Source: Gnetum montanum
Taxonomy: Eukaryota > Plantae > Gnetophyta
Reading direction: 5' to 3'
NCBI GenBank assembly: GCA_015680685.1
Contig: MNCI01000125.1
Location: forward strand, 47,548 to 111,547
Length of the DNA: 64,000 nucleotides
Notes under the pieces: model-generated
Databases searched by the model: none
What the model was told of the DNA's origin: nothing
What the model saw: the letters and a program-made list of their open reading frames with translations, nothing else
Shown here: piece by piece, positions 8,560 through 64,000 of the stretch
Numbering within the stretch: the stretch's first letter is position 1
Layout of the letters: every line of letters starts with the position of its first letter
Program-made: the position numbers and the translations under genes

Positions 8560-8677
8560 GATATTATGCTTAGAATATGCTTACCTAAAACTTTACATTT
8601 AGATCAGGCTAGGCTAGGGATATTATGCTTAGAATATGCTTACCTAAAACTTTACATTTAGATCAGGCTAGGCTAGG
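8560..8677 (+). repeat. 59-bp tandem duplication
   Basis: gatattatgcttagaatatgcttacctaaaactttacatttagatcaggctaggctagg occurs twice. Confidence 0.9.
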
Positions 8678-8715
8678 AATATGATAAGTGATGAGCCTGG
8701 AGTATTCCCAATACC

Positions 8716-37352: not shown

Positions 37353-37359
37353 AAGATCA

Positions 37360-39727: not shown

Positions 39728-42700
39728 CCAGTGCCATTTCCTTCTATGGTCTTCATTGGTTACTATCTCACGTGCTCTCTCCACCACTGTTGCTAGCTTC
39801 GAGCTAGCATAGGCTCAACACCCTTGTAGACCTACAACGACAATAGTTGGATCTAAGGCCAATGTGTAGCAACTGAAAACATCAAAGAATAGAATGGGAC
39901 ACCAAGAGGTCCATGGTTGCACAGTCTTGACCCTACTTCTACACAAGGGATTATCGGGAATGGAGGTGGGGTGCCCAAAATGGTCTTATTTATTGAATTA
40001 GGACTTATAGGTGTTACAATGAAATAAGTGTTAAAGGGGGATGTACTGTTTTGCAATGTTTGCGATGTCTACAGGTGTGAGCATAACAAAGATTTCAAAT
40101 GTGAGAAGAAAGGTTCAAACATGCAAATACATGCTTGAACAATGCAAAATGAGAGTAAAATGCTAAAAATATAAGGAAAAATGCATAGAATGTAAGTAAG
40201 AGAGAAAAGCACTACTCCAAATAAGGGAGCATAGTCAATTACAAAGGAAAGTTTAGGAGGTACATGATGTACAATAGGTGCAGTAAGCAAGCATAGTCAC
40301 AGTCTTAGGATGTTTGGCTGTGAAGAACTAATGTTTGCCCTAGAGTTTGAGCCTACTAGGTTGACTGCTGTAGTGTCCCACAAAATGCAGTGATATATAA
40401 TGTGTTAGGAGGTGTACAACAGTGTCACGGTGGTGTCCCAAATTTTGTCAAGTTTTTAAGGATTCTTGGATGTAAGAGTGTCAATGCCAAAATGCCAACT
40501 ACTGAATGAAAATGTCAATCTCTAAAATGTGAAGTGTAGGGGTATTTATAGGATTAGGGTTAGCGTGAATCATGAATCAAGCACCACGTGGTAGAGGGGT
40601 AGTTGGGACTATGTTAGCCCTTGACTACACTCCCACTGAAGTAAAATGATGTTCTACTAGTGTGCTCTAATGGACTTTGTCAGACTACTAGACTATGACT
40701 ACGTTGTTGAGACTACAAATGTGAATGCCAGATAGATCGCAAAGTACCTTAAAATAGTGCAAGTTAGAGACTATACTCTAGGACTACGCTGCCCACTCTT
40801 TTGAGTGGTGTCAAGTGTAGGTACAATTTTAGGGACAAATGGGGGATGCAAATGAAATGCAAGTTCCTGATCTTGCTTGTTGAAACAATGTTGGAGCTAA
40901 GATGTAGGCCAGTGCTAAGTTCTAGAAGTATCTGGAGATAGTTTCGGTAGATTGTGCTGAATATGCTCTAGAGTGTAGCCCAAGGAGTTAGGCAAATCTT
41001 GCCAAAAAATGATGCTCTATGTAGGCTATGCTTGCTACACTCTAGAGTGTAGTCTCAGAGGTGTGAGAATAGCCTTGACACTTGGAAAAGTTTGGCAAAG
41101 TTAATGTGCTCATGCAAAGTATGCTAACTATGCTTTGGAGCTTAGTAGGGAGTGTAAGCTCAGGAGTTAGAAAATCTGCCAAACTGGTCATTCCATACAT
41201 TCTTTGTAGCCTCTGACCTAATTCTTAGGAAAAATTGCAAATTGGTCATTCCAAGGCTAACTACACTCTAGAGTGTAGTCCCAATAGGGTGAGTGTAATT
41301 AGGGCACTTGAAAAAATCTACATATACTATTAACATTTAGAGAGATTTTGCAAATCTTGACTATTAGTGTCACCTACGCTGACTATGCTCTAGAGCATAG
41401 TTCTAGCAATGGAAGCATAGTCTTAACACTTAGAACAAATTTGCCAAGTTTTGACACTTAACCAAATTTGTAGTTGAGACTTGAGAGCTTGAATTTGGTG
41501 GTGTTTCATTGACATTTCTTTGTTGACATCTGGAGGAGTAGCTCAAGAGATGTCAACAAAGAACACAAAAACACCACATCAGGCCTAGTACCAACATCAC
41601 TTATCAGTACTTGACTGAATGTTGTTTCACCATGCTCAAGAGTGCTAAGGGTAATGGTATGCTGGGGATAAAGGGTATAGGGAGTATGCTAGGAGGTGAT
41701 AAGGGAATGAGAAGTGAAGGGTGCATGCCATTACAAGATGTAGAGTCAACACAATTGATGGGGATTGTGGCACCAAAGGTATCTTATCATCAAAACAATA
41801 ACCTCTCATCAGAGTGCTTGTAAGAGAGTCAACATCCATGGCACCAAAATGGTTTGCCCCTAAATGATAACCTCTCATTGGAGTGCTTGTGAGAAGGTCA
41901 ATGCAGATTCAGGGTTGGACCGGTTGCGAAATTGCAACTCTACTAGTTGTGCTTGGGGACTTATTTTGTTCCATTTCTTTTTTTTTTTGTGTTTTTTTCT
42001 TTTGTAACTATAAGGAAAACCTACTTTAGGTTTTGCACATTGTGAGAGGCTAGTTGCAGGATGCTTTTTGTCAAGTGGACTATGTGCCATCTAATGGGCT
42101 TTACCTTAGTGAAACCATGTAGCATTTGTAGGATAGGTGTTTCCTTCCTAGGATGAGTTGCATTACATCCACTTGGGCTTTGACTAGCCCATAGAGGCTT
42201 CCTAGAGGATGAGTTTTGTTATGTCTACTATGGGTTTTATGGTTGACAAAAGAGAATGCCATGTGCATCGGAAGGGTTGCAAGCTTGGAAATGCAAGGAA
42301 AGGTAGGGAAATGCAAGGGGTAGATTCAAGTAAGCGATAGCGGGATAATAGGGATGTGCACTCTTGAGCAGTTTAGCTAGCTTGATTGTTCATATTAGAT
42401 TGATGTGAAATCTTGCCATTGTGATGAAATGCATCTTTGCACAACCGTCTTTGGAGCTTCATCTTGTAGACAGAACATAGAGAAAACAAGCAAAATAACC
42501 ACACAACATAAGATGAGAGAAAACTACTAGTTGTAGGGGTGCTGAAAGTGCCATGAGTGCTAGAATAGTTGCAAGAGCTTGTAGCACTAGTGCAAGAAAA
42601 CTAGTGTAGGTGTTGGAGCAAGAGAGCTACAAAAGCTTTAGTAGCCACATTAGAGGCAAGTACTCAAGTAATGAGAACTTGATAGGATAGGTGAGATGGT

Positions 42701-43059
42701 CAAGGTCCTAATGATACCATTGCTTCAAAAGGTTGTGCTAACCTTGAGAGATCCAACCAATAATGAAATACCTAAGGCTAGTAATGCTATCAGTGTGGCT
42801 TGGGGTTGATACTACTAGCGACCATGGTAGGAGGCTCGAAATGTGAACAAAATGCTCAAAGGAATTTCTAGAGGATTAGCAAAATGCCAAGGATGGTAAT
42901 GCTGCAAATGTTCCATAGGCTTCTCTTGATGATGTAAACTCTATTCTAGAACTACAATGCCCTGCCTTGCCCTACCCATGAGGTGTGGGTAGATGATGGA
43001 AAATCAAAATTATTCATGCTTGCTTGTCCACAAAACTATGTGCGTTGAGCTACAAACCT

Positions 43060-43500
43060 AGTTTAAGGTCCTAGTAGATTGCATGCCATGCTAGCTTATA
43101 GCCCTACCAGATTATTGTATGTTAGTTTAACATCGTAGTGGACAATGGATGTTGTGCTAGTTTAATGTCATGACACAAGGATGGGCTATGCCAGTTTAAG
43201 CATTATGGCGAACAAATGTTATGGATGCTAATTTTAGCATCATGGCCCAAGGATGGTTTGTGCTAGTTTAGCTTCATAGCAGACATGCTATGCTGGTTTA
43301 TAGTCATAATGGACTATGTTGTGCTAGTTTATAGTTGTAGCAAAGTATGCTATGCCAATTTATAGTCATAACAAACTAATATATGCTAGTTTATAGTCAT
43401 AGCGGACTATGCTGTGCCAGTTTATAGTCACAGTGGACTCTACTATGCTAGTTTATAGTAGTGGTGGACTAATCTGCACTAGTTTATAGTCATAGTAGAC
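43060..43500. repeat. Tandem array of ~14 units of 30-37 bp, core TGCTAGTTTA(TAGTCATAG), just 3' of INT
   Basis: Units read directly, e.g. ctagtttatagtcatagcggactatgctgtg. Confidence 0.85.
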
Positions 43501-43530
43501 TCTTACTTACCTTGCTTTGTTATTAATGCA

Positions 43531-46500
43531 CTATGTGTAGTACAAATTCAGCTACAAGTGGTTCACTAGATTAGCAAATTTATTACCATCATGGTCAGCA
43601 AGATTGAATGCTCCATTACCATAAGCCTTAATGACTAAGAAAGTCCCTTCCTAGTTGGCTGAGAATTTGTCCACAGGTTTATGAATAGCCTTGAGGACCA
43701 AGTCCCCCTCCTTGATTAGGCATTGATGCTGATTGTGATGGTGCTTTTGCCATTGCATTTTTTGGTACTACTTGATGTGACCAAGTGTTTACATGCACTT
43801 CTCCTCTATTGAGTCAAGGTCTATGTCCCTCAACTCATCATTTTGATCCTCATCTATGAAGCTTGAGAAGTTTCTGTAGAGTGGCAGGACTTGCAATTCA
43901 AGAGGCAAGATGGCTTTAGACCCATAAACCAAATTGTATGACATCTTACCTATTATAGTTCTTCATGTCATGCGATAGGCCCAGAGTGCATAGATCAACT
44001 ACTCATGCAATTGTTGCTTACTGCTATGAAGCATCTTCTTTAGAAGGTTGACGATGACTTTGTTTAAGGCCTTTGCTTGGCCATTTTCTTGTGGATAGTA
44101 AGGCAACGAGAAGGAATGTTTAATTTTGTGGCATTTGCAAAAGGCCTTGATTTTAGCACTACTAAACTGTGGCCCATTGTCTATGACTATGGCCATGGGT
44201 AAACCAAAATGGGGCACTATGTTATCAAGTATGAATTTGCAAACCTACTATGATGTGGTCCTCCTAAGGGGAATAGCTTCAACCCACTTCATAAAATACT
44301 CAGTGGCTGTTATAATGAAACTATGCCTTGTGGAGTATGTAGGCATTATTAGTCCTATGATGTCCAATCCCCAACGTTGGAATGGCCACATGATCTATGT
44401 GGTATGCAATTCAGGAGGTGGCACATGCATGAGGTTACCATGTTGTTGACATGTATCATACATGTTGACCTTGAAGATGTAATCGTGCTCCATGTAAGGC
44501 CAATAGTAGCCTAAGTGTCTGATTTTGTTGCTATTGCCCTGGGTGCTATGTGACCTTTGCAGAGTCCCTCGTGGACTTGTTCGATGATCGTCTATGCTTC
44601 ACTATCATTGATGCATGTCAACAATATGCCATCATAGGATCGGTGGCACAAACTTCTATCACCTATAATGACATACTGCTACAATTGCTTTTGCATTGCA
44701 TCCTTTTGGGTAGTGAGTAGATGTTGCGAGGGTTTACCTTATAGAATGTGTGACTTGATGTCATCATACCACTCTACTGTGTGGGTTGTGCTTATTGTGG
44801 TGATGGATGCAATGTTAGTTGTTTTCATGATAGGCATAATGCAATCCACCATTGCAATGGGTAATGTGCAAAACATTTCATGTGTAATGCTTAAGGCTAA
44901 TGTAGCTAATGCATTGGCGATGGAATTTTTTTTGTGGGGGATATGATAAACATCACCAGTTGTAAATAACTTGACTAGGTGCTTCACCAAGTCATAGTAA
45001 GGCTTCAAGTGTTGGGCTTTGTAAGCATAGACCTCTATGAATTATTTAACAACTAGTTGTGAGTATCCTTGGATCGCTAGGTTCTATATTCCTAGGTCAC
45101 AAGTTGCTAAGATACCTCGAAGGAGACCTTCATAGTCCACCACATTATTAGTGCATGGAAAGACAAAGTGATATGCAAAGGATTAGATCTCCCTAGAGGG
45201 AAACATGATTATGGTAGTGACACTAACCCCTTGGGAGGTTGAAGCATCATCGAAGTGTAAAAGTTCCTTGAAGTTGTTAAGCACTTGGCTTATGCTAGTA
45301 ACATGCTCATCTAGAAATTCTAGATCTATTGTTGCTTGGTCATTGATTAAGAAAGCTGTAAGTTGTGTGGCTATTGCTTGACCTTTAGTTGATGCTTGTG
45401 TAATGTAATGCAAGTCAAACTTTGTGGTTATTACTTTCCAATGCATAATGTGACTGCTCTCATAGATATTTGTTGTAATTGCTTGGAGTACATTGCTCTT
45501 GTAGATGATGTTTACTTAGCTGTAGAAAAGATAATGCCTCCACTTCTTAAGTGTGAAGAATAAGATGAGGAAAGTGTTTTCTACATCATTGTACTTTGCT
45601 TCATAGTCCACTAATGCATNATGAGAAAAGTGTTTTCTACATCATTGTACTTTGCTTCATAGTCCACTAATGCATGGCTTAGGTAGTACATAGGAACCTT
45701 GTTATCATCATCTTGCTTTTGAAAAAGTAGCAAAGCAATGGATGCATTAGAGATAGCAAGGTAGATGTAGAATGGTTTATCTCATTGTANGAAGCAATGG
45801 ATGCATTAGAGATAGCAAGGTAGATGTAGAATGGTTTATCTCATTGTAGAGGGTAGACTGTTGGAAGTTGAGCCAAGTCTTGCTTAAGGTTGTGAAATGC
45901 TACTTGGCATTGAGCCATCCACTCAAAGTGGATTTCTTTTTTAAGTAAGTGTTGCGTTAGCTGCAACTTGTCGATTAGCTATGTATAAACCATCATTTGA
46001 ATTACAATCTACCTTGTAACCCTTGTAGCCCCTTAAGGTTGGTCGATGGTGCTAAGTTAATAATGGCCTTAACCTTATTGGGATCTATGTGTATGCCTAC
46101 TTTGTATACTACAAAACCTAGCATGCGACCCATCTTTATGCTAAAGACATATTTCTTAGGATTTAGCTTAAGTTCATGCTTTAGTTAGCGTTTGAGCATA
46201 AGTTCTAAGTCATCTGCATGGTTTTGTGATGCCTTGGATTTAATTGCTATATCGTCAATGTAATCATTGAGCAGACCTAATAGGTAATCACTAAAGATGT
46301 ACATCATGGCTCGTTGATAAGTTGCTCCTATGTTCTTAAGTCCAAAGGGCATCATGGTGTATCAAAATGTACCCCAAGGGGTCATGAAGATAGTACTAAG
46401 TTGGTGCTCTAGGTTGATCTGAAGTCAGTTGTACCCTGAGAACCTGTCCATAAAGGACAACAACGCATGGACAATTGTAGTATCGACTAGTTTATCAATA

Positions 46501-47147
46501 CTAGGCAATGGGACATCATCTTTAATGGTCACCTTGTTGAGGTCTTGGAAGTCTATGCAAATTCGTATACTTCCATTTTTCTTAGGAACAACAACAATGT
46601 TGGAGATCCAATCAGTGTAGTTAATTGTCCAGATAAAATTAGCTTTGTAGAGCTTGGTGATTTCATTGTAGGCTACCAACACCACCTTAGGCCTAACCTT
46701 GTGGGCCTTTTGTTTGATTGGTTTCATGTTGGGATTGAGGATTATGTTGTGTTGCACTATGTGAGGATTTAGGTCAGGAATATCTTCATAAGACCATGTG
46801 AATGCCTTGATGTTTTCATTAAGTACCTTTGCAATGTTTTGGGCATGTTGAGGCTCTAACAAAGAACTAAGCTTCAATGTTTTTGCCTCGTTACTAGATG
46901 TTGCTATAAGGACTTCAACAAGGGGATCCTTGGTGATGTCTCTTGTCTCTAGATCTATAGCCTTAACTAGGTGGTTTGGCTAGTTTAGTGGTACCTCTAT
47001 GGATGTTATGTATTCATCATAGGCTACAGGCTCAAGGTCCAAGCATTAAGGATCGATGCATCACGTAAGATCATCATGTGGCCCAGTAATGGCCAATGGT
47101 GGATGGAAATGCTTATACATAGCCATGTTGTGAATCCTACAATAATC
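43531..47147 (-). pseudogene. Degenerate pol (RT-RH-aRH-INT) of the Tat/Ogre element
   Basis: AFTWSYEDIPDL, WISNIVVVPKKNGSIRICIDFQDLNK, LSFMD.FSGYN; aRH LHFDDAS; INT IVIDNGPQF, YYPQENGQA; KFSANWEG-like GPY/F domain. Numerous stops. Confidence 0.92.
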
Positions 47148-47274
47148 CTACAAAAACAACCAAAAAAATGTCAAGCTGCATTTGTCTTAATGAGAGCAAT
47201 ATGCATAATTAAACAAAACAATGTGATAAAATTTTTCCTAAGTATGTAGATTTGATTGTAAAAGCAAGGAATGC

Positions 47275-47465
47275 ATGGGCTAATTTTAGGCCTTGGTAGG
47301 ATACTAGGTTGCTAGTTTGAGGTCTAGCAGATCATGAAGCACTGGTTTAAAGTTTGAGAAGATTGTTGAATGCCAGTTTAATGTTGTGGAAGATAGTGAA
47401 ATACTAGTTTAACATTGTAGTAGATGGTGAAATGCTAGTTTAACATCATAGCGAATAGTAATATG
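47275..47465. repeat. Tandem array of ~6 units of ~31 bp, core GCTAGTTTAA, just 5' of pol
   Basis: ctagtttaacattgtagtagatggtgaaatg and related units. Confidence 0.75.
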
Positions 47466-50400
47466 CACTAAATGCACTGTTGAGGCAAGGTTGGACACAT
47501 TGGAAGAGTAAAATTGGCTTGGGTGCTAACTGGGTGACAACAAAAATTCAAAATTTTTCTAAGTCTAGAGACTGCTAGAAAAATTAAAAATTTTTCTAAC
47601 TCTAGTAACTATGCTTACACCTAGCTATGCTCAACACTACTGAGCATAGTAATGGGTAGGTGAAAATTTAAGTGGTTCCTAGGGGTATATAAGTGCATTT
47701 TACCCTTGGTGAATTTTGTTATTGTCAAAGGTAAAAATGAACTTTCCAGAGTGTAGCATAGTTGCCAACATGTTGCATTGATGTGGATGCCAACACCCTA
47801 GCCTAGCCAACATGGAGGAGGGAGAGTGAGTCTTGGAGTGCCTACCACGAGCATGTGTGGAGGGGAGGAGAGCATTGTTGATTGCTAAGTATGCTTGACT
47901 ATGCTTTCCTCCTTGTCATTGTCCTTGCATTTTCTTTTGGCTTCATGCACTAGGTGTTTTCAGGGTTTTGGGGTTTTATGGATGGTGTCCTACGTTGGTG
48001 ATGAGTGGCGAGATACCCCTACACTCAACCATACAAATACAAGCGTAGCATGCATGATCTGATCAAACTCTGCAGACTAAGTGCCTACATGCCCCATGGA
48101 ACACTTAGGGTTAATCATTCATTGTCTTCCCAGACTTACTTGTAGTTGTTACGATGTATGGTTACGCAAGTCTAAGGTATATGATTTCTATGCTTTTTAT
48201 GTTTTATGTCTCCTATGCTAACAAGGTGAAGGGTTGAGAAGACTAATTAACTAACTCTAACTAATGAACTAATTCTAAATTAACCTAGCTTCAGCATTCG
48301 TTTCCACTTACCGTACACACCTTGAATCGATGCAACCTTGGCTACCAAACGCTAATCGTTGCTGGGATCACCAAGTGTAACGCACATGCTCGAAGTGGTC
48401 GTACTGAGGCACTTAACTAGGAGAGAAGGGTTGAGAAGGATTTAATAACTAATAAAACATGTAAATAATAGATAACAAATAACAGTAGTAAAATCCTATT
48501 CCATGCACTACAAGGTTTATCCATGAAGCTTGTCTTTATTGCCGTACACAAACTTGTGTTTAGATACAATGTCTGCTCGAATAAAGATCCGTTCACTTTG
48601 GGACTCCTACTGTGGGCACATGGAAAATATTCTATCTCTAGAGCGATCAATCTGCCAGAGTTTCCCTATTGTCTAGCCTAGGATGAGGAAATAAGGGAGA
48701 CCCATCTCTTATTTATAGATATGACGACACACTGTGATATTGCGTATGCGATATCGTAGGAGAAGACATGATATCGCATATGTGATATCACGAGGGATGC
48801 AATTTCGTGACTGCCGTGATATCATGTACGTGATATCGCGGTCCATGTGATATCGTGTCCCATCATACCCCCATGACTAAATGAAAACTCATCCTCGAGT
48901 TCCTTACAATAATATTGGGAAGATATGGGATTATTGACTCAAATGAAACTAATGGGATGATGTGAACAAATCATCATTACAAGACACAACAAACTGGTGT
49001 TCATGAAAACAAGGGCGAACACCTTATTACATTGTTATTAGGCCTCATTTGGTAGCTTGAGAGAAAAGAGAAGAGAGAATAGAGAAGAACTATTGCTGCT
49101 GCCAATGCTAGGATTACGCCTTTCATTGTCCATCCGTAAGTGTGCCATCGATCTTACTCCTTGCATAGCTACTTTAGCACTGCTCCATTCCAAGTGCTCC
49201 CTCTCGATCCAATTTGTTATTGCATGATTTCCATCTGCACACACAAAAAAATCTTATATTAGCAAGGGTAAATGAATTATCATGTAATTGATACCTTGCT
49301 TTGGTGAACGATCAATTGGCTGGGTTGTGGTATGGCTGATTATGGATATGGAGATATATTAATGATGACTACCGAAGGTGTAGGGGTTAGGAGAAAATTG
49401 AAAAAATTGGGTCTCATACCTCCATGACTAATTGCGAGCCTTCGGTAGCGAGAGAATGAAAAAAGAAAAGTAATAAGAAAGATGGATAAAAAGAGACAAC
49501 TAAGACATCAATAAAGTGGATGTCAAGATGGAAATGAACAAAACAAAATGGATTGCAAAATGTTAAGCGAAAGAAGTTAACTGGTGCACCAAATAGGAAT
49601 GCCAATGGGTCCTTCCCAAAGCAGGCTCATGCCCTTAATGCCCTAACAAACCTACATTCAAAGAGTCTATAGGCTTTGGGAATGTCCTTTAGAACAAGAG
49701 TTAAAGTCTTAATCATAAGAATTTACCAAAAAGAAAACGATGCATTTACCAAAATATACACTAATGATATAATCGGTAATGAGGTGAACAATGGAGAGAA
49801 GGATGGAGAGAGAAGAATGGAATGGAATCCCAAGGACAAGGTGGTGTACAACCCCTTGTGGATTTCATGATTAACGTGACTTGGCAAATCTCATTCCAAC
49901 TCCAGCCTCAAACAAACCACATCCAGTGACTTCACATCAATGTATTTGGCCAATGCATCCTCGTGAATAACAAGAATTCCTTCACCCAAGAGCCACCACC
50001 ATTTCGACGAAAGANGCATCCTCGTGAATAACAAGAATTCCATCACCCAAGAGCCACCACCATTTCGACGAAAGAAAGGAGAAAATGGAAAGCAAGAAGG
50101 GCCTTAGTTAGAGGGAATGTTTTTAGTTCCATAACCAATGCTTGTAGCCCAAGAGATTATTTTGTTTAAGGGGTGTGCTTTGAATTCTCACTTTCTTTCT
50201 TTTCTCTCTTTTTTTTGTTGTTTTTATTTTTATGCATGAGAACCACACCATGCAAAGACTTCTTATTTTTATAGACTCAGCTTTCGATAATTGGGTAACA
50301 TCAGAACAGTAAGAAAACTTAAGAAGAAAACATCCAAGCACCCAAGAGAATGGCCAACGCAAATGCATCAAGTTCCCTTGAAGTCACACCCTTTGCAAAC

Positions 50401-50660
50401 CTTGAGTCCTTTCTTAGTTTGAGAAATACCCAGTCACCGATTCGTTAAAGTTATTATTAGGAAGGGACTGTACATTTCCAAGCCAAGAGAGACCATAGAA
50501 CTTGTGGGGAAATGGATGAAGTGAACTCATTGCCTACGATATCAAAAGAAACATACCTTAGTATCAACATCGTAACTTAAAGGTAAAAACCAAACATTAG
50601 CAATCAAATGGAAAAACAGTTCATACCATCGTGAAGAACACTTATTGGGTGACAAACTTA

Positions 50661-50865
50661 NNNNNNNNNNNNNNNNNNNNNNNNNNNNNNNNNNNNNNNN
50701 NNNNNNNNNNNNNNNNNNNNNNNNNNNNNNNNNNNNNNNNNNNNNNNNNNNNNNNNNNNNNNNNNNNNNNNNNNNNNNNNNNNNNNNNNNNNNNNNNNNN
50801 NNNNNNNNNNNNNNNNNNNNNNNNNNNNNNNNNNNNNNNNNNNNNNNNNNNNNNNNNNNNNNNNN
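50661..50865. other. Assembly gap (N run)
   Basis: Run of N. Confidence 0.99.
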
Positions 50866-51045
50866 AAAAAAAAATGTGTAAGACAAAAATGTGTAAAACA
50901 AAAATGTGTAAAACAAAAATGTGTTAAAAAAAATGTGTAAAACAAAATTGTCTTAGAGAAAAATGTGTAGAACAAAAATGTGTTAAACAAAAACATGTAA
51001 AACAAAAACTTGTAAAAAAAATGTGTAAAATAAAAAATGTAAAAG
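50866..51045. repeat. 15-bp minisatellite (aaaaatgtgtaaaac)n
   Basis: About 11 degenerate units adjoining the gap. Confidence 0.85.
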
Positions 51046-51133
51046 AACTGAGGGCGTCCAATGATTAGCATAAGTGGCCATCTCCCCCATGACTGAATTT
51101 TAAGGGAGAGATTCGAAATTATGAATATCTATT

Positions 51134-54111
51134 TTAATTTCGTAAAAGTTCCGAACTTCCCCCTATTGATGTTCTTAGATTAAGGGGTGGAAGTTGGCGA
51201 CGCACATATTCCAATGTGTCTATGCCTTTGTTGTTAACATGAGTTGTTTCCTTGGTTCTTTCCATGCATATTAGGTTGCTCTTTTTAGTAGCTGTCAACC
51301 ATGGGGTATCTACTACTGGTGTGGTTGCTACATACAGGCACCTTTGAATTTGTATTTCTTGGACACACAGATTACATGGAAGAGATGCTGAACATTCTTC
51401 CATGTCATCATCCTTTGAGTCACTGTATGTAATGCATGAAACTTTCTTCTTCTCTATCTTTGCATATATGTTTACCTTAGATATTTGCAAGGAAAGATCG
51501 CGGATCCCTAGGTACGCATCTACTGTACTTAGCCATGGCCTTCCCACTATAATTGGGAAACCCCCGTTGTTACTGTTAACTTCTATCACCAGGAAATCAG
51601 CTAGGTATGAACACCCACACATAGTGGTAATGATTTCCTTCACCAATCCCAAGGGAATGGTGATGGACTGGTCAGCCAGCTCTAGTTGAATGTTACTCTT
51701 CTTAAGTTGGGACAGGTTCCAGGCTTGATACATTTCTCGTGATATTAAGTTGACCCTAGAACCTGAGTCAAGAGGAGCCTTATGTGGTGCATTCTCGATG
51801 ATTTGTAAATAGATTAAGGGGCTCCCAGGGTTAGATAATTTCCTAGGAAGGTGGCCTACCTTGATCCAGTTGGTTACGGTATGCGTTAACATAACTGTAT
51901 GCGTATAGCTTTGTTGTTGGACTAAAGGGTGCTTCGAAGTTTTAGATGGTGGAGGAGTATACACATACTCAACCACTTATTGTTGTGAGAGCTTGTTTGG
52001 GCTTTTGGTTCTGAAGAAAGGCCTTCTCTTTTTACAGTTGTCAGAACCATAAGCAGGTTGAATATTTACAGCTCTTGCAACGTTACTTTTTTGCGGCTGA
52101 GTGGGGAGTTCCCCTTGCATTGTTGAAGCAGGAGGTATGGGAACTACAGGTGGAAGAGGTGCAGATGGAGTTGGAGGATGGTATGAATGTGAAATGTCTC
52201 CCAAAGGAGGAGTCCTCCTAAAGTACTCTCAAACTTGGTAGTGACGTTGGGGAGTTGTGTGACCCATAGAGTCACTTGGAGAAATTAACTGCTGCACATA
52301 ATATCCATATGGGTCTGGCTACCGGTAAGGGTACTGTTGTGTTGGTGGTGGCATCCCCCATGATTGTGGGCGTTGCCACTACTGATGTTGTCTGATGGGT
52401 TGTGGTGGATTTCCACTTGGATAGTATGTTAATGGTTGGTGGAACTACCTTGGGTTACCTTGAGGATAAGGTAACCTTCGGGGTGTTTACCATTGGTTAA
52501 GTCTCAGATTAAGTGCATACACCCCAAACTCCTGTAGATGTGAGATGATTGGACAACATCCCTTAGGATGATCATATTGGTAGATCTCACATCCACCGTC
52601 ATTGTCTGTGTCAGAATCCACAGCCTCATTGGAGATAGTAATTTTTCCCTTACCCTTGTTATGTGTAGGGCCTAAATCTCTCCACTTTGTCTACCTTTGT
52701 CACTACTTTGTTCCTTCTTAGACTCTTCTAAGATTTTCAATACACTTTCAAGTTTGGAGTCTAAGGAATCCCACAATTGGTCTACCTTAGCCGATACTTC
52801 GGTTGTTAGTTTTTGAATTGGCAAGGTTTTTCTATTCACCAACTCTTCATGTGGTGACTCATCCTCCTCGTCACAAAATCTTACTCCCTTCTATCGAAGG
52901 GCAGGATAACGGTTGTATTCTTCTATACTCTCTCTTTTTTGTAGCTCACCTTATTCTTTTACTACTTGTTCCAACAAGTGATGAACATCATGGGCTCTAA
53001 GTTCTCATAGTCTCCCTTGGGCATAAGTCCCAAGGGTTCCTCTAGTTTCATGCCTTAGCCCATCCATGATGTGGCAAAGTTGGTCCCATTGTGCGTAACC
53101 ATGGTCCGAGCAATGATGTAACAATGTGTAGTAGCGGCCCATGGCAGCATCCAAGGGTTCATGATTACCTTGCTTCCATCCTTGGATCTGCTTATGCAAA
53201 TTAGACACTCTGGAGCACGTTTGATATTTATCATTGAAGAGTTCTAACATCGTACTCCACCTCCTGATGGTTTCCAATTCTAAAAATTAGTACCAACTCT
53301 CTACTTCTTTAGTGAGTGTCCTGGGAAACAACTTAAGTTTTTACCACTCATTTTCTATGTTCTACAAGGTGCAGGCATCATGAAATGCCTGTAAATGATG
53401 TTGCAGATCTAAGTTGTATTCCCCTTCAAAGCGTGGGATATTGTTCATGTCTAAGCGTTTGATCTGGCTATCTCTTTGATGCCTTGTTGGAATCTTAACA
53501 GCCTCCATTATGTTGAGCATACTTCGGGTTGCAAGTAGGGGCTTGTCATGATCATCTCTTTCATGATGCCTATGATGTCTTCGTTATTCCCTACTTTCCC
53601 TTTGGTCATGTCCTTGTCCTCTCTCTTGACTTTCCTGTCAAGGTCTCTCATTTTGCCTACCTCTATCTTCATCATTATGTTCATGGTGGCTGCACCCAGA
53701 TGTGGAAGGAGAGGGTGAGTGGTGAGATGAAGGGGAAGAGGAAGGAGAACCATCTCCATGATGATGCTTCTTTCCTTCTGTTCTGGTGCTATGGCCCTGA
53801 TCGTGATGACGATCTAAGTGCCCTTCCTTATCATGAGTTGTTGTTCCCTCTATGAATAGTTGGAGTTCACAGGGATTAGAACCAGTGTTTTGTATCATTG
53901 ATCGTAAGTTCTGATACCCAACCTCCTTACCATAGTTAGGAGGGGGAACATTATTTGATAAAGAACCTGTTATAATGGGTTCATCATCTCCTATTTCCCT
54001 AAGGATGTGTAGGGCTTTGCCCTTCAACAATGTATGTTGGCTCTCCTGCCTTGAGTCCCTCATATGTTGCACTGCTGTGGGATGATAATTCCTCATGTCA
54101 AAGTCTTTCAA
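51134..54111 (-). pseudogene. Degenerate gag-protease of the nested Athila-like element
   Basis: W..MLELFNDKY...IQGWKQGNHEPL...CSDHG (gag). LSNPGS...LDSGSRVNLIS...LELADQS..PLG...DFLVI...PIIVGRPWL (aspartic protease). No RT follows the stop at 51134. Confidence 0.88.
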
Positions 54112-56941
54112 AACATATTCAGCAGTTCTTTCATGCCAATCTGTGCCAAAGCATGGAGGAGCATGTTAGCGACTGATCGATCTGGGGGTAACACAATGTT
54201 ACCTTGCAAATCTCTCCATCGCAGCTATTTGTCTTGATGGAGGATAAAGGTAAAGTTTGGAATATACTCATCAGGATGAGTATAGACTATCTAGTATTGT
54301 TGAGGACTTGGCAAATTTCAGTTATGTGTTTTTGATTGCCGATTGTTTCGTGTATTATCCCTAGGTGGTGAGTTGCTTTTGTTAGAAGAAGATATTGTTA
54401 TTTATCGATGTGCTAATTGACCGTTTATAAATTTCTATTTAATTAAACCAAAGGTTTGTTTAGGCTCCTAATGATGTGAGTGATATCCTATGTTCTATTT
54501 AGTGCACAAACACTTAGTCCCCAGCAATGGTGCCAATGATGAGTGGCGAGATACCCATACACTCAACCATACAAATACGAGCATAGCACACATGATTCGG
54601 TCAAACTCTGTAGACTAACTGCCTACATGCCCCATGGAACACTTAGGTTTAATCATTCGTTGTCTTCCCAGACTTACTTGTAGTTGTCACGGTGTATGGT
54701 TAAGCAAGTCTGAGGTATATGATTTCTATGCTTTTTATGTTTTATGTCTCCTATGCTAACAAGGTGAAGGGTTAAGAAGACTAATTAACTAACTCTAACT
54801 AATGAACTAAGTCTAAATTAACCTAGCATCAGCATCCATTCCCACTTACCGTACACACCCTAAATTGGTGCAACCTTGGCTACCAAATGCTAATCGTTGC
54901 TGGGATCACCAAGCATAACGCACGTGCTTGAAGTGGTCGTACTGAGGCAATTAAGTAGGAGAGAAGGGTTGAGAAGGATTTAATAACTAATAAAGCATGT
55001 AAATAATAGATAATAAATAATACTAATAAAATCCTATTCCATGCGCTACAAGGTTTATCCACGAAGCTCGTCTTTATTGCCGTACACAAACTTGTGTTCA
55101 AGTACAATGTCTACTCGAATAAAGATCCATTCACTTTGGAACTCCTACTGCAGGCACATGGAAAATATTCTATCTCTAGAGTGATCAATTTACCAGAGTT
55201 TCCGTATTGTCTAGCCTAGGATGAGGAAATAAGGGAGAGCTGCCTCTTATTTATAGATATGACAGTGCATCGCGATATTGTGTACGTGATATCGCAGGGG
55301 AAGATGCAATATCACGTACGTGATATCACATCCCATCAGTTGGCAAGGGCCACCACTACCATGGCCCTTATGGCCATTATGGTAGTGAGGGAGTGCATGC
55401 TAGGTAGGGGTTTCATTTTCTATTTTGGTGCTATGGTTTGAAGGCAAGGATTTTGATGATTGTAATTACTACAATTGTCTATGTACCCACAAATGTATTT
55501 TTTTTATTATTTTATTATTTTCTTAATTCTATGGCATGCATAGTGGAGGGTTTACTAGTGCCACCTTGGTGTGGTAGGGGCGATCGCCACTACACCTGTC
55601 ATGGCTATGTGGAAAAGGGGAGGATTAGCAGCAAGCTTGTGCATGACTATACGTGAGGCAAGGGGCTTGGGTTGCAGTGGTTGTAGCTACTATGTTGATC
55701 AGAGCAACCATGGGGGTGCTCAGGGTAGTAGATCAAGGTTTTGGTGGTGACCATAGGGCTGATGCCTATAGAATCGAGGCTTGACGAGTCACCATTGTGA
55801 TTATCTCTGTTTGCCCCACAATTTTGACTATGCATGGGGCAAGGACAACAATGTTGACAATGTCCATGGGTGGCCATCATAGGGCAAGGGTGATATTAGG
55901 GATTTTCATCATTATTATTTTTATCCATCTATGTGGGGTCTAGGATTGCAACAATGATGGATGGACATGTTGTAGGGGTAGGGAAGTGGTGGTAGGGATG
56001 AGGGTTCAAGGGTTGCTGTTACCTGTAAGGTAGGATGTGTAGCGAAGGCCACAACGAAGCACAAGGTAGGGCAGTGCTGTGGGGCATAGTGGCGTAGCCA
56101 CTGTGGTAGCGACCACAATTGTAGGAGGTGTAGGGATGTAGAGCATAGACTATTATTTCCTTCTGTAAAAAAAAAGATCATTGTTGGAGCTATGCTCCAT
56201 GGGAGTGTAGCCAATAGTCAATCAAATTTTTTAAAAAGAATTTGAAGACTTTGAGGGCTATGCTCCTTGGGAAGCATAGTTGACAATTAGAAAATTTTTC
56301 AAGTTTTTGGACTACACTCCTAGAGGTAGCCTAGAGCTAGAATTTTTTGTGCCTACTTCAAGTTGTGCTACTTGGAGTTAGAAAAAATTTTAAAAATTTT
56401 GTTGAATGTAAAAATATGCCCACAATGCTAAAAACTACGATAACGTTAATCTTGCAAATTGAAATAATGCCAAACTACTAAAACATGTAAACCAAAATAA
56501 TGCGAACATGCACATGTGTGAAGAAAAATACTTTTGCTATGTTAATATGCTATACCTTGATGAGTACCAGCCACATCAAATGTATATTCTAATGTCCTAT
56601 ACTTGCGGGGCCCAAGGGGCCTTATGATATATTTTTTCTAAGTTATGCTATGCCATGGTAGTTTTTGCTAAGTGTAAACTAATGTGTTTTTGACAAAATG
56701 CATCTATTTTATACTAGTGCTACATTCACTTCATTTGTGTGATTGCATGGTGTTGCTAAAGGTAATCTTGGTTGTTGTGGAGCTTGTTAGCATCCTTTGC
56801 TACATGAGTGAGCCTGTGCCCAACACGCCTGCCTTAAATATGAAGTTGGGTCACTAAGTGGTATGGTTTCAGCTAGGGGGATCTAAGTTCTTATCATTCT
56901 TGCTACAGTAGTTTAGTGTGATCATGTGGTTATACTTGGCA

Positions 56942-59900
56942 ATGGAGGCTATGGCTGCCATCATCGAGACATTGCTACCTGGGGCCAATCGAGACATACT
57001 AAGGTTTATGCTTGATGAACCAAAGACCAATGATCATAGAGCAAGTGGTTTGCGGCAAAGCCACAGGGGCTCTCATCCCCTATCCAGGATCTATGGGATG
57101 CCAGAGTTTTCTTGTTATATTAGGAGCAACACCCTCTTCGTTGCTCTGCATGTGCATACCATGTTCCAGAATCCACCTAGAACTATATACTATGCTGGAG
57201 GGTAAGCGCTCTTATGATTCTGCATTATGTTTCTTGTGATCAACCCTTGCTAGATTTGCTAACTGCTAAGTGCTCATGCTTTATGCCAAATTTAAAGTTG
57301 ATGATAAGGGGCTCCATGATGAGCCAGAGGCTCTTGCCTTGACCTACACCACCCTAGAGGTGTTCTTCTCTAGTATGAACTTTTGGCAGGTCATTATTGA
57401 GTAGGTGGGAGAGGACTTAAAGAAATACTCTACCTGGTACTTGAAGGAATTCGAGTGGTGCAAGACTCTTGATTGGCTTGATGAGGGATGGGCTAGTGGC
57501 AAGCCCAACTTTAAGGAGCTAGTTGCACCACCATCACCAATGCGTACACTATTTGTTCCACATAAGCACTTGTTGCTTAGCTTTTAAGCTTGCTCACATG
57601 CACTCATGGATTTCCCCTTGCATAATGATAACATTAATTTTGCCTATGTTACAGCTACAATTGCTTTAGGAGAGATGATGGTGGTTACCACTGGCCATAG
57701 TGAGGCCACCTTCATAATCAAGTACAGTGATGTAGAGGGGCACAACATTGGTTGTGCCATTGAGCCTCAAAGGCATTGACTAATTAGCTCACACGTGTTG
57801 TGTTGATGGACCTTTTTTTGGTCCTTAGCCCAAGCATTTTAGTGGCCAAGATGGTTACCATTATAGAATCCTTTAGCAGCAACACCCACCACTTTGTCAC
57901 CAATGTGCATGAAGTGAGGGTAGTCTTGGACCTTAATGATGCCTTCTTTGCTAATCTCTTTGGCTTCTCCTCTAAGGGCCTATTAGTCATTGACAAGGCT
58001 AGTAGAAAAATGGACAAAAAAGGAGAGATTGAGAAGTGGTTGGAAACGAATCAATCACGTAAAAGCATCATGGTTAAAGACATGCATGTGCCTAATGTCC
58101 AGCAGCTCTACCCTCTTTTTCATGCAAGTGCCTTTCCAAAGTTGCTCTCCCAAGGAAAAAACCTTGGGGTGGAGCAAGCACAAGTGATGAGGGAGGTATT
58201 TGAGGAGGCCAAAAGGTTTAATTAGGCCTCCTTTCTCACTACCAGACTATAAGCCAAGATCACCAGACTTTGCTACAACCTCTAGGCAATGTCTCACGTG
58301 CAATTGGCATTCTTCGTAGCATATTTGTGAAGGTTTGCGGAGGTCTTAGTGGTCCAGGATAGAGGGCACTAGGTAGTGAAGGATTGTGAATAGCTATTGA
58401 AGCCTTGGGTTAAAAACTTGTTCACCACCTCTCACATGTAGGACCCCCTAGAAGGGATCAATGAGTCATATTCGGTTATGACTAAAGGTGATTTGGGAAG
58501 GTCACAGTCACATTACTCCTATGACAGTGTGGGCAAGTGTCCCTCAACTATTATTGGGGATGTGAATATGGTTGATTGTTACATTGTAGAAATAGTGGGG
58601 CCTTCCAAGACAAAGATCAAGAGGCCATGCCCAACAGAGGAGGTTTCCCTTGTAGTTGGCTAGGTAGGTGCAAAGAAAATCCATCTCAAGATACTGACTT
58701 TGCATGTGGATGTTGCAGGTTAGTTCATGTGTAGATGCATTTGTTCTTAAAATTATCTATGTTTGTAATTTTTTATGTTTTCTTATTATGTTACACTAAT
58801 GCAACTATGTTATTTTCATGCATTAGGTGAGAGGGTTGCCAAAGCAATGGTAGTGACAACGGTAGAGATAGCACCTCCTTAAGCTGAGGAGGAGGAGGCA
58901 CCATGGGAAGAGCTACACAAGGCCACAGAGGCCTTCCAGTAGTTTGATATATAGGGGCTATTCTACCTTGATGAGGGTGATTTTTCTAGCCTCTTTGATG
59001 GTGTGCAACTGGGGGATCCTCCTACTCTCACACCTGAGGGCTTACTTTGTAAGTGCTTTATGTTGCCATATATTTTTGTTCTTTTGCTCTTGCATCTTTG
59101 GCTATTTAGTTGTTGCTAAACATTGCATCATGTTGGGTTATAGCCTCGAATGTTCCTGCTAGTGATTCACCACTCGCACTTGTCCACTGCATGAAGCTAT
59201 GGGTTGAGACGCCAGATAAATTTGCCTTCATGGAAGGCATAGTTGAGCACCACATATAGTAGATAGATCCCAAGCTCAGCATGCATGTTTTTTTGCTTAC
59301 ATTTCTTTACTAATTTTATGCTTAGTTTGTGGCTAATGCTGATTTGCTTGTTGCATGCCAATAGGTTCTAAGCTCCTCTAGGATCCGAACCAGGTGATCA
59401 AAGTGGATGCCATCCCCAAGTATCCCCTTGAAGTTGAGCAAGTGCCTTGTTGCATGTACGAGGTAGCTAGCAAGTGCATGCTTTCCAATGCAAAAGCTTT
59501 ATCCAACTACAAGCACTTGAATGAGCAGCTATTGAAATGTGTGCATGAGCTTCAGGAGATAGTGGAAAGGCAAAACTAGAAGATCAGGGAACTTCAATCT
59601 CTATATGGTTTTTTGTTGGCTCGGGCATGGGGAGATGATAGTTGGTGGACTACAGAGATCAATTATGCTAGGTACTAGTTGGCAATCTGGGGCAAGAATG
59701 AGGCCACTTGGGAGGTCATCAAGTAGAGGTTATAGATGGACCTACTTGCTCAGAAAGGCTAGAAGTGAAAGAGCTTTAGTGCTAAGGTGTGCAAGTGGGG
59801 GCACATGTAGAAGGACCACAAGCACCATTACAATTGTGAGTAAGACACATATCTATAACAACTTAAAGAGGGGTTCATCAAAGCTTGCTACCTTGATTTG

Positions 59901-60372
59901 TTCATTGAGGTGATTGGCAGGAGTTGAGCTTTTGAGAGATTTGCTTGCCACATAGTCGTTAGTGATTCTCCTGAGTAAGAGATTGCCATACCTTTAAGGG
60001 AGGCTTTGTTTGCTACCTTTTCTATGCAACTATCCACATGGATCACTATGGATGAAGACAAGACCCTTGCGGGTATTAACTTCAACTAGGAAGACTGGGA
60101 GACTGGGCATAGCTATTAGAGGCTAAGGTCCTCTAATGCTTGGAGGAGAGCCTTGATAGAATGGCCCTAGACATGGTCGATGTGGGACCCTCTTAGGTTA
60201 GTTCTTTTATGTTACTTTTTATGCTTTTTTCTATTAGGTGTATATTGTACACTTGCTTACATTTTTTATGTTTTGATGTTGTCATTGTTGACAGGCACTA
60301 GGCGATGCTGTAGGCCCCAACAACATGATGGAAGAAGAGGAGCCTCTACCCCCACCTGGCACCATTAGTTAG
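56942..60372 (+). pseudogene. Decayed multi-exon accessory gene, antisense within the Tat/Ogre element. About 7 exons: 56942-57201, 57298-57543, 57655-58718, 58827-59048, 59144-~59278, 59365-60196, 60295-60372
   Basis: GC-richer coding-like blocks alternate with 86-111 nt AT-rich introns, five with GT..AG ends. Phases match at three junctions checked. Stops are mostly TAG/TAA. Exon 3 (LNDAFFANLFGF..G...FN*ASFL..RL) resembles plant TE accessory proteins; exon 6 looks coiled-coil. Confidence 0.65.
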
Positions 60373-60559
60373 GTAAATCCTAACATAGCCCTGCCACTGG
60401 GCACTTCTATATTTTGTATATTTTTTTGGTGTAATGCAGGTGATATGTACTACTATGTTTTATGAGATGTAGTGGATTTTTGCTATGTGGAGTGTATGAT
60501 GAGTGGCGTTGTGTATTTATTTGCTATGTGCTGTGGAAATCATGTGATAGATAATGCAA

Positions 60560-60840
60560 TTGCTAGTTTTATGTCATTTCAAGACACACATGTAGATAAT
60601 GCTTTGATAGTTTTAGGCCATTTCAGGCCTTGATGATAAAGAAAATTTAATTGTTACTTTTAGGCCATGGCAGGCCATGCACTATTTTAAGGCCTTTTTG
60701 GGTCATGCGACTTAAGAGAGATTAGTAGTTTTAGGCCATGGTGGGCTGCATAGTAGTTTAAGGCCATTTCAGGCCAGAGATTGCTAATTTAAGGCCATGG
60801 CAAACCATGTGTTGCTAGTTTAAGGCTATAGTGGGCCGTG
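60560..60840. repeat. Tandem array of ~8 units, core (G)CTAGTTT(T/A)AGGCCAT, 3' of gag-protease
   Basis: gtagttttaggccatgg, gtagtttaaggccattt, gctaatttaaggccatgg and related units. Confidence 0.75.
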
Positions 60841-61079
60841 GTATTTCTTTTGTAACTTTTTCATTTTATGGTGTTTATGTATTTTTAAGTTTTATATGTA
60901 AACTAACTACTAAAAGCAACTAAATGAAAATGTAAACTTAGTGCAATGCACAAATAGAGAAAATGCATAAAGAAAGGAATAATGCAAAAGATGCAGACAA
61001 CCAAGCTCATGTAAAATACAAAAAAAAATGTAAACAAGCAAAGTGTGCAAAATTGGGGCAGGCAAGAACCTAATGCCTA

Positions 61080-63600
61080 TTAGACCAAGGGGATACCTTA
61101 GTCACATAGTTGTTTCCAAATTTTGTGTGGGTTAGGAGGTGTGTAGGGTTTGGAGGGTGCAATATGGTATTTTCTCTAAACTTTGTCAACTATGTTAAAG
61201 GGAAATTCTACCCACAAAGTGTCTTCTGAAGGATCAGGGGCTTTTGTTGGCTCTTCGAGTTAGTTTGCTTCACATTTTTCACCTTCGTCCTTTATGGGAG
61301 GAATGTTATCGAGGAACTCCACCTCTAACCCTTACTCAACATTAATGTTGCTAATGATTAAAGGGGCTACATTTTCACCATGTATGATAACCTCTCCACC
61401 TTTGTATAGGAGGTGGATCTCCTAATGGATTGGGGAAGAGACAATCTACAATTGGGCTAACCAGGGCCTACCCAAGATTAGGTTGAAACCTGGCATCTCT
61501 TCAACCACTATGAATTTGGCCGTGGTGGGGTATTACTCCTCTACTACAAAGGCTATTGTGATAGTTTCCTGTACAAAAACAAGAGATCCATTGAAGGATT
61601 TCAAGTAGGTTTTCTTTGTTAATTGAATTTGGTCAGTAAAACTAAGCTTGTTAATGAGTGTGTATGGGATGACATTGGTTGCCAACTTGTCATCGACATG
61701 CACCCTTTGAATTTTTCATTCCCCCATGTAGATGGTAATGAATATCAACACAGTAATGACTTAACCCTTCTTAGGATCCATCTTAATCATCTCATCACAA
61801 AATCCTAGGGGCCTTGAACTTGATTCCTGCGAGGGAAGAGGCAACATCATAGTGTGAATGGACTGTTCGTCCACTGGAATGTCCTCTGTAATGGAAATGA
61901 AAGTCAACATGCATACTAATGCTTCATAATGGGTGGAGGAAGTCATTACCAAGTCATACAGGCTGCTTAACCTATGCTAATGCATCAAGGAAGTCTTTGC
62001 CATGATCTACCACTTTGTTGTTGGTGGCCTTCATCTTCTTCATTCATCCTAAGAGATAAATCTCTCATGGAGTGGATTTGAGCCTTGCTTGTTTTGTTTA
62101 CTTTTGAGCCTCAATGCTTCATTTTTGGCTACTCGATTATTTTAGAGCCTCTGTGCTCCTTGGTTGACTACTTTTTGTTGCCTATTCAACTGGTTGGACC
62201 ATTATTATGGAGGACAAGGGAATAGGACTTGGTGGACCTAATGTCCTTTACTCCTGGTGTTGCCTAAGCATTTGATTAGTGAGGTGCTCGTTGGGCCTCC
62301 TAGTTTGCCATCTCATTTGCTTGTTGGTGTTCCTTGCAAGTTGGGATCATGGTCAAGCAAGGACCAATGCATTACCCACCATCAGGCTTCCAACAAGTGG
62401 GGGGCCTGCATGCTATGACATCCTCATGACGATTGCAACTATAACGTGCTATTGGGCCCTGATCACAAAGGGTGTTATGGGCACCTAAGGTGATGCTCTT
62501 ATGAAAAAAGGGGTTCTTAAACTAGCTGGTGTTGAGGAGGCCCTAGTGTTACTAGAAGGCACATGAACCACGAATGGCTCTTGTTTTGATTTTGCATTGT
62601 CATCAATGTTGATGGCATTGATGATGTACCCTACACTGCCTACATTAATTAGGTCCTTGTAAACCCTCATTGACTAGTTCTAGTGGAGCATCAGGTTGGT
62701 AGCATCAAGGACCAACTCACTCTTGTTAATCATGCATTAGGTGTCATCATACAAAGCCATGCAAAAGTCTATGTCATGACCTTGTAGTTGGTGATACTAG
62801 CACTAAATTGGTATCATGGACACTAAATTTAGTGTATGATACCAATTTAGTGCACCATGGACATAACACTTGGACCCCACAATGTGTTCATGGATTGGGC
62901 CATTGTAAGGGGTGCCAGCATGATAGTTGATATGAATGACACCCGAGTCAAGTATAACAAGCAAGAAATGTGCATGGTGTGTACTTAAGGTTGCATAGGT
63001 GCATTGGTTATTGCTATGGAAGGTTGGACAACCTAAATAGGTCTAATGGGCTAAATAGGCTGAATAGGTTGTGAAGGCTATGTAGAGATGGTAAAAGCAA
63101 CACTAAAGGAAAGAATAAAAGGTGGAGCTACATCTTGGTGTGCCTATGGCATCTGTTGGGTTACCACCACAGGTGTTGACCTGGGCAGTGATGCTAGGCA
63201 GTGGGGACATTAGAGGAATGAAAGTAGAGGCTATTTACTAGAATGAGGCATGGAATGGGTTCTCATGCTTAGATTGAGTCTCAAACTCTTTCAACTTCTC
63301 TTGGAGGGGCTCCTCATTGTCCATTCCTTCCTCACGGCTCATGTTGCAGACAAGGTTGTCCAACATCCACTAGTAATCTTTTGTGAGTGGGACATAGTCA
63401 AAATCAGAGGGGAGCCATTCCATCTTATTTTGATACATGATATTATAACTATGTTTGGCTTTCATTTCTTGGTAGTCTAAAGGCAAACCCATCTGGAGTT
63501 TTGTAGAAATAAAGTGATACTGCTCATCATTGAGCACCATGACCTCAGGAGGTAGGTTGCGTTGCCTAAGAGATTACCTTTGTACTAGGAAAGGACCCTC
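61080..63600 (-). pseudogene. Degenerate gag-protease of the Tat/Ogre element
   Basis: C*YHQLQGHDIDFCMAL zinc knuckle; EMPGFNLILGRPWLAQL*IVSSPIH*EI protease C-terminal motif. Many Gln-to-stop changes. The 5' boundary is approximate. Confidence 0.75.
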
Positions 63601-64000
63601 AGCCCTAGGAAGGTTAATCTATATTTCCTACTGAACAAGTTAAACAACAATCACACTTGGGATGGAGGTCAAATGTTGTTTGGGATTCATGATGCATGGG
63701 AGAATGCCAAGATTTGCTTATGAAAAATAGGAAGAAAAAGGGCTAAGTGCTAAAATGCAGAAAAAGGGCTAAGTATGCAACTATTGAGAAAACAACTAAG
63801 TGTAAAAATGGAAGATAATAGCTAACTATAAATTACTAAAAAAATGCTAACTTTGGGACTATCCTTAGAGCTTAGTATGCTCACTACATTAGAGCTAACT
63901 ACACTCTGTCAAGAACCTAGAATATGGTTAAGTGCAAGTTATGAACTTTGGTGTTGCTTAACAGGGTTACAAGGGAACCAACAATGGGGTCCACTCCACA

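Follow-up and report, generated by a model that had tools for sequence, protein, structure and literature searches.

The window analysed here, a 64,000-nt stretch of Gnetum montanum DNA (contig MNCI01000125.1), contains the decayed remains of a Tat long terminal repeat (LTR) retrotransposon, in which a gene with several introns lies on the opposite strand between the protease (PR) and the reverse transcriptase (RT). Read from right to left on the minus strand, the order is a gag-like frame, the protease, a gap, a pol region with RT, ribonuclease H (RH), additional archaeal-type RNase H (aRH) and integrase (INT) domains, a 1.9-kb non-coding stretch, and an LTR (Table 1). The protease frame terminates at two minus-strand stops (61082-61077) and the pol frame opens at 47147, immediately behind a strong minus-strand acceptor-like site; these positions agree with the boundaries of ~61080 and ~47147 proposed for the minus strand in an earlier note on this DNA. 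The gap between them measures 6,594 bp once an Athila-like insertion bounded by target-site duplications (TSDs) is removed, matching the ~6.6 kb given in that note.

We assigned the pol domains from Pfam matches for RT (RVT_1, E 8.7e-18), aRH (RVT_3, E 1.7e-10, placed after RT_RNaseH) and integrase (rve, E 2.3e-12), which put aRH between RH and INT. The protease region had no Pfam match and matched the protease region of Ogre-type polyproteins in a phmmer search (independent E-value, iE, 6.7e-14). No Pfam match was found for positions 61900-63700 and the best phmmer iE there was 0.008, so the gag identity of this frame is read from its position. Stops occur at 2-3% of codons in every module (8/266 in PR, 28/927 in the antisense gene, 8/386 in RT, 7/360 in RH-aRH and 9/317 in INT), and the copy at this locus is dead, a fossil. 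The outer flank of the 3' LTR carries CAATG (39860-39864), a candidate TSD; the window ends at 64000, and the 5' LTR and the second TSD lie beyond it. There is no classical purine tract at 41515-41565, before the 3' LTR; a 16-bp hairpin lies at this spot, where a polypurine tract (PPT) is expected (z -4.1, 0/200 shuffles).

The plus-strand gene at 56942-60372 comprises eight predicted coding exons separated by seven GT-AG introns of 95-111 nt each, with a coding length of ~900 codons. Its introns contain 33-56% T vs 17-28% in the exons, and a crude intron scan gave 13 candidates on the gene strand vs 0-3 on each of five control strands. Five of the seven junctions are in phase, among them the three for which the earlier note had reported matching phases (57543/57655, 58718/58827 and 60196/60295); the first junction, which that note had found mismatched, is off by one base, as is junction 6. 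The spliced gene described there is retained, with eight exons instead of about seven and with introns of 95-111 nt instead of 86-111 nt. We added the in-phase 107-nt intron at 57722-57828 in this analysis; because this intron accounts for an apparent change of frame near 57780, we rejected a frameshift at that position. A further 67-nt GT-AG candidate follows exon 8 (60373-60439). Nineteen of the 28 stops in the coding sequence are TAG, a share that would fit decay of methylated cytosines, and the gene is a pseudogene in this copy.

Apart from the Athila-like insertion, the earlier note had seen no LTR, primer-binding site (PBS) or PPT in the gap, and our BLAST comparison with the 3' LTR and site scan bear this out. 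The remaining spacer contains no PBS-like site and no purine run beside an LTR-like edge, and it gave no BLAST match to the 3' LTR, its likeness to the LTR being confined to short motifs. Two spacer blocks, inverted relative to each other, nevertheless show a resemblance to the U3 region of the LTR at the level of these motifs. The first (47500-47780), read on the plus strand, scored 53 against the LTR U3 in sense orientation vs 26+-3 (0/100 shuffles), and contains TATATAA at 47686-47692, the motif that the earlier note had placed at ~47685. Reading this TATA as a minus-strand promoter is less likely, the LTR-sense score being 32 on the minus strand (12/100 shuffles) vs 53 on the plus strand. 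All 12 of 12 matches of one palindrome type fall in both LTRs, in both spacer blocks, or at 39280. We rejected the idea that the spacer is a decayed LTR, since the likeness is at motif level only and the depth is low. One 31-nt repeat unit also recurs, in a single orientation, after the protease, before RT and after the integrase. With one mismatch allowed, the unit TGCTAGTTTA gave 23 matches vs 7.3 expected, 17 of them on one strand within the three arrays, and the array before RT matched the array after the integrase with E 6e-9.

Evidence on other copies came from public DNA runs with matches in five organisms, the contigs of which were aligned to the window. Bridging pieces are overlapping contigs from different copies, 24 being listed of about 61,500 for 46500-48060; for 55339-64000, 8 pieces and 12 of 33 indels are listed. 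We observed 26,937 contigs on 55339-64000 in run X1, most of them <90% alike, with a summed depth (which is not a copy number) of 1,074-5,748 over the antisense gene vs 335-9,016 over gag-PR. In the public runs the antisense gene and the protease region are repeated to a similar extent. Among the pieces listed, contigs from diverged copies link the pol N-terminus to the acceptor (46993-47208 and 47029-47256), cross the length-variable array (47152-47300 together with 47542-47659), and reach the TATA block (47404-47714 and 47550-47750). This chain from pol through acceptor and array to the TATA block was found in X1, X6 and X7, representing three organisms, in contigs 15-20% different from this copy, indicating that pol is preceded in other copies by an outward-facing promoter-like block, not by the protease. 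One contig from a diverged copy (56190-56512) overlaps the second U3-like block, and loose ends and joints occur at the third array (60560-60835) in the alignments on 55339-64000. The regions of introns 1 and 5 are kept in the DNA of other copies. Four of the five listed gene indels lie in introns, which make up 21% of the gene length (P 0.008, with 12 of 33 indels listed; P 0.02 when the intron proposed after seeing an indel is excluded), in a sample that is small and that homopolymer runs could bias. RNA reads on 55339-64000 numbered 346 in X10, 86 in X13 and 29 in X14, mostly <90% alike, and no splice joint is listed among them. The X10 reads lean to one strand over the gene and over gag-PR, with read direction uncalibrated, and X11 has next to no reads on the promoter block.

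Table 1. Features of the Tat element and its spacer, in window positions, with strand and, where given, basis or depth.
Position	Strand	Feature	Basis or depth
39865..41508	-	3' LTR (1,644 bp), with minus-strand ends TG...CA	
43058..43501	.	tandem 31-nt repeats (TGCTAGTTTA unit) close behind the integrase	
43520..47147	-	pol (RT-RH-aRH-INT), decayed, with frameshifts and stops at 2-3% of codons	
47147..47175	-	acceptor-like splice site in sense orientation (T-tract + TAG), abutting the pol frame	sequence; region present in diverged copies
47250..47466	.	31-nt array before RT, unit and orientation as in the array after INT, length varying among copies	
47500..47780	+	U3-like block with palindromic motif and TATATAA; candidate antisense-gene promoter, many-copy	
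47781..47998	+	leader/core, left part, interrupted by the Athila	depth 40-106 beyond 47878
47999..55338	-	Athila-like element inserted later, flanked by the TSD GTTGG, outside the Tat family layout	
55344..56120	+	leader/core, right part; low-copy at 80% likeness	depth 37-58
56120..56400	-	second block resembling U3, in the opposite orientation to the first	score 50 vs 24+-3, 0/100 shuffles
56942..57201	+	exon 1, ATG at 56942, junction 1 off-phase by one base	
57298..57543	+	exon 2	
57655..57721	+	exon 3, short, followed by a 107-nt intron	
57829..58718	+	exon 4, the largest block that looks globular; searches gave no homolog	
58827..59048	+	exon 5, acidic, Pro-rich	
59144..59258	+	exon 6, junction 6 off-phase by one base	
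59365..60196	+	exon 7, heptad-patterned helical stretch near its start; frame of second half uncertain	pLDDT 35, weak
60295..60372	+	exon 8, ending in TAG	
60560..60835	.	third 31-nt repeat array, between the end of the antisense gene and the protease	
60840..61096	-	sense sequence behind the protease, rich in T and resembling an intron; contains candidate donors	
61077..63700	-	gag (assigned by position) and protease, decayed	phmmer (protease)

We consider it very probable that gag-PR, antisense gene and pol form the architecture of a family, as the earlier note had proposed. Three observations speak for this, namely the many-copy gene, the link between pol and a promoter, and the repeat common to the three modules; links across the mid-spacer and the protease end are not seen in other copies. 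The PR-pol intron of Ogre is short, and it is probable, with less confidence than for the layout itself, that here a PR-RT intron has grown around an accessory gene and provides the route to pol. The unspliced LTR transcript would serve both for translation of Gag-PR and as the full-length packaged RNA. A splice that joins a donor behind PR to the 47147 acceptor would take out the entire gap and open pol, as in Ogre, where gag-PR is separated from pol by a spliced intron (PMC4408406). The accessory gene would be read on the opposite strand from its own U3-like promoter at 47500-47780, comparable to Grande gene23, which is transcribed from its own promoter (PMC7264820). Because the antisense introns would face backwards in the packaged RNA, they would persist through retrotransposition. 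As for origin, we speculate that a cassette once located 3' of pol might have reached the intron when the template was switched from one copy of the 31-nt array to another.

Several observations weigh against this layout or this route. Depth is only 37-106 over 47878-47983 and 55339-56205 (~1 kb of mid-spacer), so no other copy was seen joining the promoter to the gene, and none of the 8 pieces listed on 55339-64000 bridges the protease end. The comparison of module order among copies that the earlier note had called for has yielded a chain from pol to the antisense promoter and no bridge to the protease. Some of the bridging contigs share coordinates across organisms and are probably the same locus. 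Two of the seven antisense-gene junctions are out of phase. A Cryptomeria gene model, P0002, joins a protease remnant and RT in one protein, whether contiguous or spliced. Kinship of the antisense product with the plant mobile domain (PMD) or Transposase_28 was tested and not found. Finally, none of the candidate donors clearly matches the phase of the 47147 acceptor.

Because no in-phase donor was shown and the RNA contained no joints, a separate pol transcript has to be weighed. The layout would then be the same, with pol as its own transcription unit that has a sense promoter in the spacer (e.g. at 56120-56400) and a leader intron ending at 47147, and PR would never be joined to it. We regard this as unlikely. 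Two inverted U3-like blocks flanking the core, a gag-PR frame closed by two stops with no donor clearly in phase, and an ATG 8 codons inside the pol frame speak for such a unit; however, no TATA-like site was seen by eye on the minus strand downstream of 56120-56400, the sequence after PR is T-rich and intron-like, and Ogre splices at the equivalent position (PMC4408406).

We give still less credence to a one-off fusion, in which a gag-PR element with a 3' antisense gene (in the style of Retand or Tat III/V, its pol lost) would have been joined, through a deletion or a recombination of 31-nt arrays, to the pol half of another copy. The 31-nt array at both ends of the gap and after INT would permit such a recombination, the mid-spacer link is low-copy, the 5' LTR is outside the window, and non-autonomous Retand elements without pol domains exist (PMC11963269). 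Yet other copies have the outward-facing promoter block, not a protease, upstream of pol; no LTR or PPT remnant lies behind the antisense gene; no accessory frame follows INT (41600-43100: no Pfam match, no long ORF); and decay is equal across all modules. It is very unlikely that an independent mobile element, or a gene captured from the host, entered an ancestral PR-RT intron and gave rise to the antisense gene as a functionless passenger: no function was found for it, and multi-intron genes are more typical of DNA transposons or host genes, but the cassette is flanked by no pair of terminal inverted repeats (TIRs) and no TSD, its candidate promoter has motifs in common with the LTR of the element, the indels listed among copies tend to lie outside exons, and a search of 1.84 billion representatives gave neither a host nor a transposase homolog. 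The earlier note had named a TIR or TSD of the spacer as evidence against its three-module element; both were looked for, and none was found.

We searched for relatives of the antisense product with the largest exon (57788-58717 translated, stops as X). This query had no homolog among 373 word-sharing candidates of 170-543 aa and no match among the 1.84 billion representatives at E up to 0.001, and none of its 90 pattern matches in metagenome contigs held up as a homolog. Against 126 retroelement proteins, the best iE was 3, and a match to a Transposase_32-bearing protein (iE 7.7) was not significant. No Pfam family reached the cut-off for any exon of the gene; PF10536 (PMD) gave no match at E up to 10, and PF04195 gave none in the gene either. 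We set aside a by-eye likeness of the product to PMD and Transposase_32 motifs as unsupported. Single-sequence structure models of the product had pLDDT values of 35.4 and 35.5, and ESM Atlas gave no result for it; only the heptad pattern in exon 7 recalls the globular-plus-coiled-coil accessory proteins of Tat elements. The anti-silencing or targeting role suggested by the earlier note is thus without direct support, there being no homolog, Pfam family or usable fold. VANC binds short element motifs. We tentatively propose, from the analogy with PMD and VANC proteins as functional analogues (PMC5418596, PMC13547354) and from the clustering of one palindrome type in the LTRs and spacer blocks, that the ~900-aa product might have been a nuclear factor combining a globular part with a coiled coil, in the manner of Tat PMD/Tr28-CC proteins or VANC, which binds palindromes shared by LTR and promoter and counters silencing. 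Integration targeting or export of intron-retaining RNA may instead have been its role.

The host and the RT both bear on the lineage of the element. A host EGY3 gene, encoding a chloroplast metallopeptidase, lies in six exon blocks at 25844-30232 on the minus strand. In a quick 24-row tree this EGY3 was sister to that of Welwitschia, with which it has 79% identity (SH-aLRT 99), a grouping that indicates a gnetophyte host, and with such a host the element is likely Tat cluster K and not Ogre proper. The best matches of the RT were aRH-bearing polyproteins (39-49% identity), and the order RT-RH-aRH-INT is structure 1. The nearest RT relative came from Cryptomeria (grouping support 97 in a quick tree of 37 rows without a K reference, the branch being long), and the RT fell, with the same long branch, outside the starred clade of legume, Malvaceae and Populus rows. 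A metagenome RT scan gave 10 loci at 30-47% identity, none of them a close relative. The aRH domain lies between RH and INT, not before RT or after INT as in TatII and TatIII. No antisense TRP28 gene of the Retand kind was found between pol and the 3' LTR, where the three plus-strand frames at 41600-43100 had no Pfam match; the spacer gene, for its part, contains no PF04195. The extra gene is not placed as the extra ORF of Ogre, since it lies between PR and RT, and it lacks PF10536; the region 5' of gag is outside the window. Neither the angiosperm host nor the RT placement inside the Ogre clade that define Ogre applies here. The label 'Ogre' used in the earlier note is accordingly too narrow, given the gnetophyte host and a nearest RT in Cryptomeria, and Tat K is the published group that fits.

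The Athila-like insertion in the spacer has LTRs 90.4% identical over 793 bp, and contains a gag (PF03732) and a protease-like frame. No RT or integrase was found in its readable part; an N gap of ~200 bases (50661-50865) inside it may conceal more. The LTR of this insertion occurs in extreme abundance (summed depth 4-5 million), with RNA reads on both strands. A contig from organism C matches the low-copy region 47739-47969 with 2 differences and 4 gaps, suggesting that two species probably have this very insertion in common. An LTR from a related Tat family, 64-75% alike to the 3' LTR described here, lies in inverted orientation on the plus strand (37362-38597, also delimited as 37364-38600) in another Athila-like element (33437-37360), and a further Athila-like LTR end lies near 39450. 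Elsewhere in the window we observed five two-copy, near-perfect tandem duplications of 56-61 nt (8559-8682, 27710-27823, 45565-45675, 45733-45850 and 49955-50075), four of them around a single N and all probably scaffold artefacts, and two unrelated direct-repeat pairs that are 83-91% alike (374-793/1693-2100 and 19037-19758/25166-25710).

Structure 1 is the domain order of Tat cluster K, which makes up ~90% of Tat elements in Gnetum and Welwitschia (PMC10508981, PMC13468544). Our element has the gnetophyte host, the RT-RH-aRH-INT order and a nearest RT from a conifer II species in common with this cluster, and the published Gnetum representative is annotated without GAG or PR (PMC10508981). 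The terms 'antisense', 'intron' and 'eORF' are absent from the main texts of PMC10508981 and PMC13468544, so the spacer and gene are undescribed in those texts. According to Table S3 of PMC10508981, the protease is unannotated in 6 of 7 gymnosperm structure-1 Tat representatives, Gnetum included, in 1 of 29 other gymnosperm aRH rows and in 3 of 9 angiosperm rows; all 7 of the structure-1 representatives are without a GAG annotation. A similarly wide spacing in Ginkgo, Taxus, Sequoia, Sequoiadendron and Thuja may underlie this pattern. The annotation pipeline searches 7.5 kb around RT (PMC8775202), and a wide PR-RT spacing would yield missing proteases, as would diverged protease sequences; because the rows are related, the pattern is only a hint. 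We would not expect, but can envisage, that a deep gymnosperm Tat branch (clusters J/K, with Gnetum and perhaps Ginkgo, yews and cypresses) has three modules: pol would be opened by removal of a 6-7 kb intron, and the multi-intron antisense gene inside it would specify a VANC-like, sequence-specific anti-silencing factor for the element's LTR palindromes, all missed because gag-PR escapes annotation tools at such a distance. Should the layout be general, it would account for the missing gag and protease annotations of gymnosperm structure-1 Tat elements, date the Ogre-type split of gag-PR and pol to before the angiosperms, and reveal an abundant, unannotated accessory protein family without a known homolog.

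Like Ogre, the element has gag-PR set apart from pol with a putatively spliceable intron, aRH between RH and INT, and an extra gene for what may be a globular domain and a coiled coil (PMC4408406, PMC6317226). By contrast, Ogre is described from angiosperms, its extra ORF either precedes gag in sense orientation or follows pol in antisense, and no PMD was detected in the antisense product here. Retand, Grande and RIRE2 elements likewise contain an antisense gene with its own promoter (Grande gene23, nuclear) beside tandem repeat arrays, in an internal region of 3-6.5 kb (PMC11963269, PMC7264820); their genes differ in lying between pol and the 3' LTR, in ORFs that are not multi-intron, in carrying TRP28, and in being found in eudicots and monocots only. 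VANC of VANDAL elements and PMD proteins offer a possible functional model, an element-encoded factor paired with short motifs repeated in non-coding DNA (PMC13547354, PMC5418596); these are, however, systems of DNA transposons, and no sequence or fold link to the antisense product was found.

Plant LTR retrotransposons are generally intronless, Ogre and EVADE being named as exceptions (PMC12786077). Surveys assign extra genes to one of two places, 5' of gag or 3' of pol (PMC6317226, PMC7264820), and full-text searches together with the excerpts of these two papers and of PMC11963269 gave extra ORFs only there, with none between protease and RT; Steinbauerova 2008/2011, the PMC13468544 supplement and the Gnetum genome papers are outside this scope. 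A backward multi-intron gene between protease and RT represents a third position for accessory genes, and a natural counterpart of the orientation rule on which retrotransposition reporters are built. The arrangement is a variant of Tat/Ogre organisation, not a new class.

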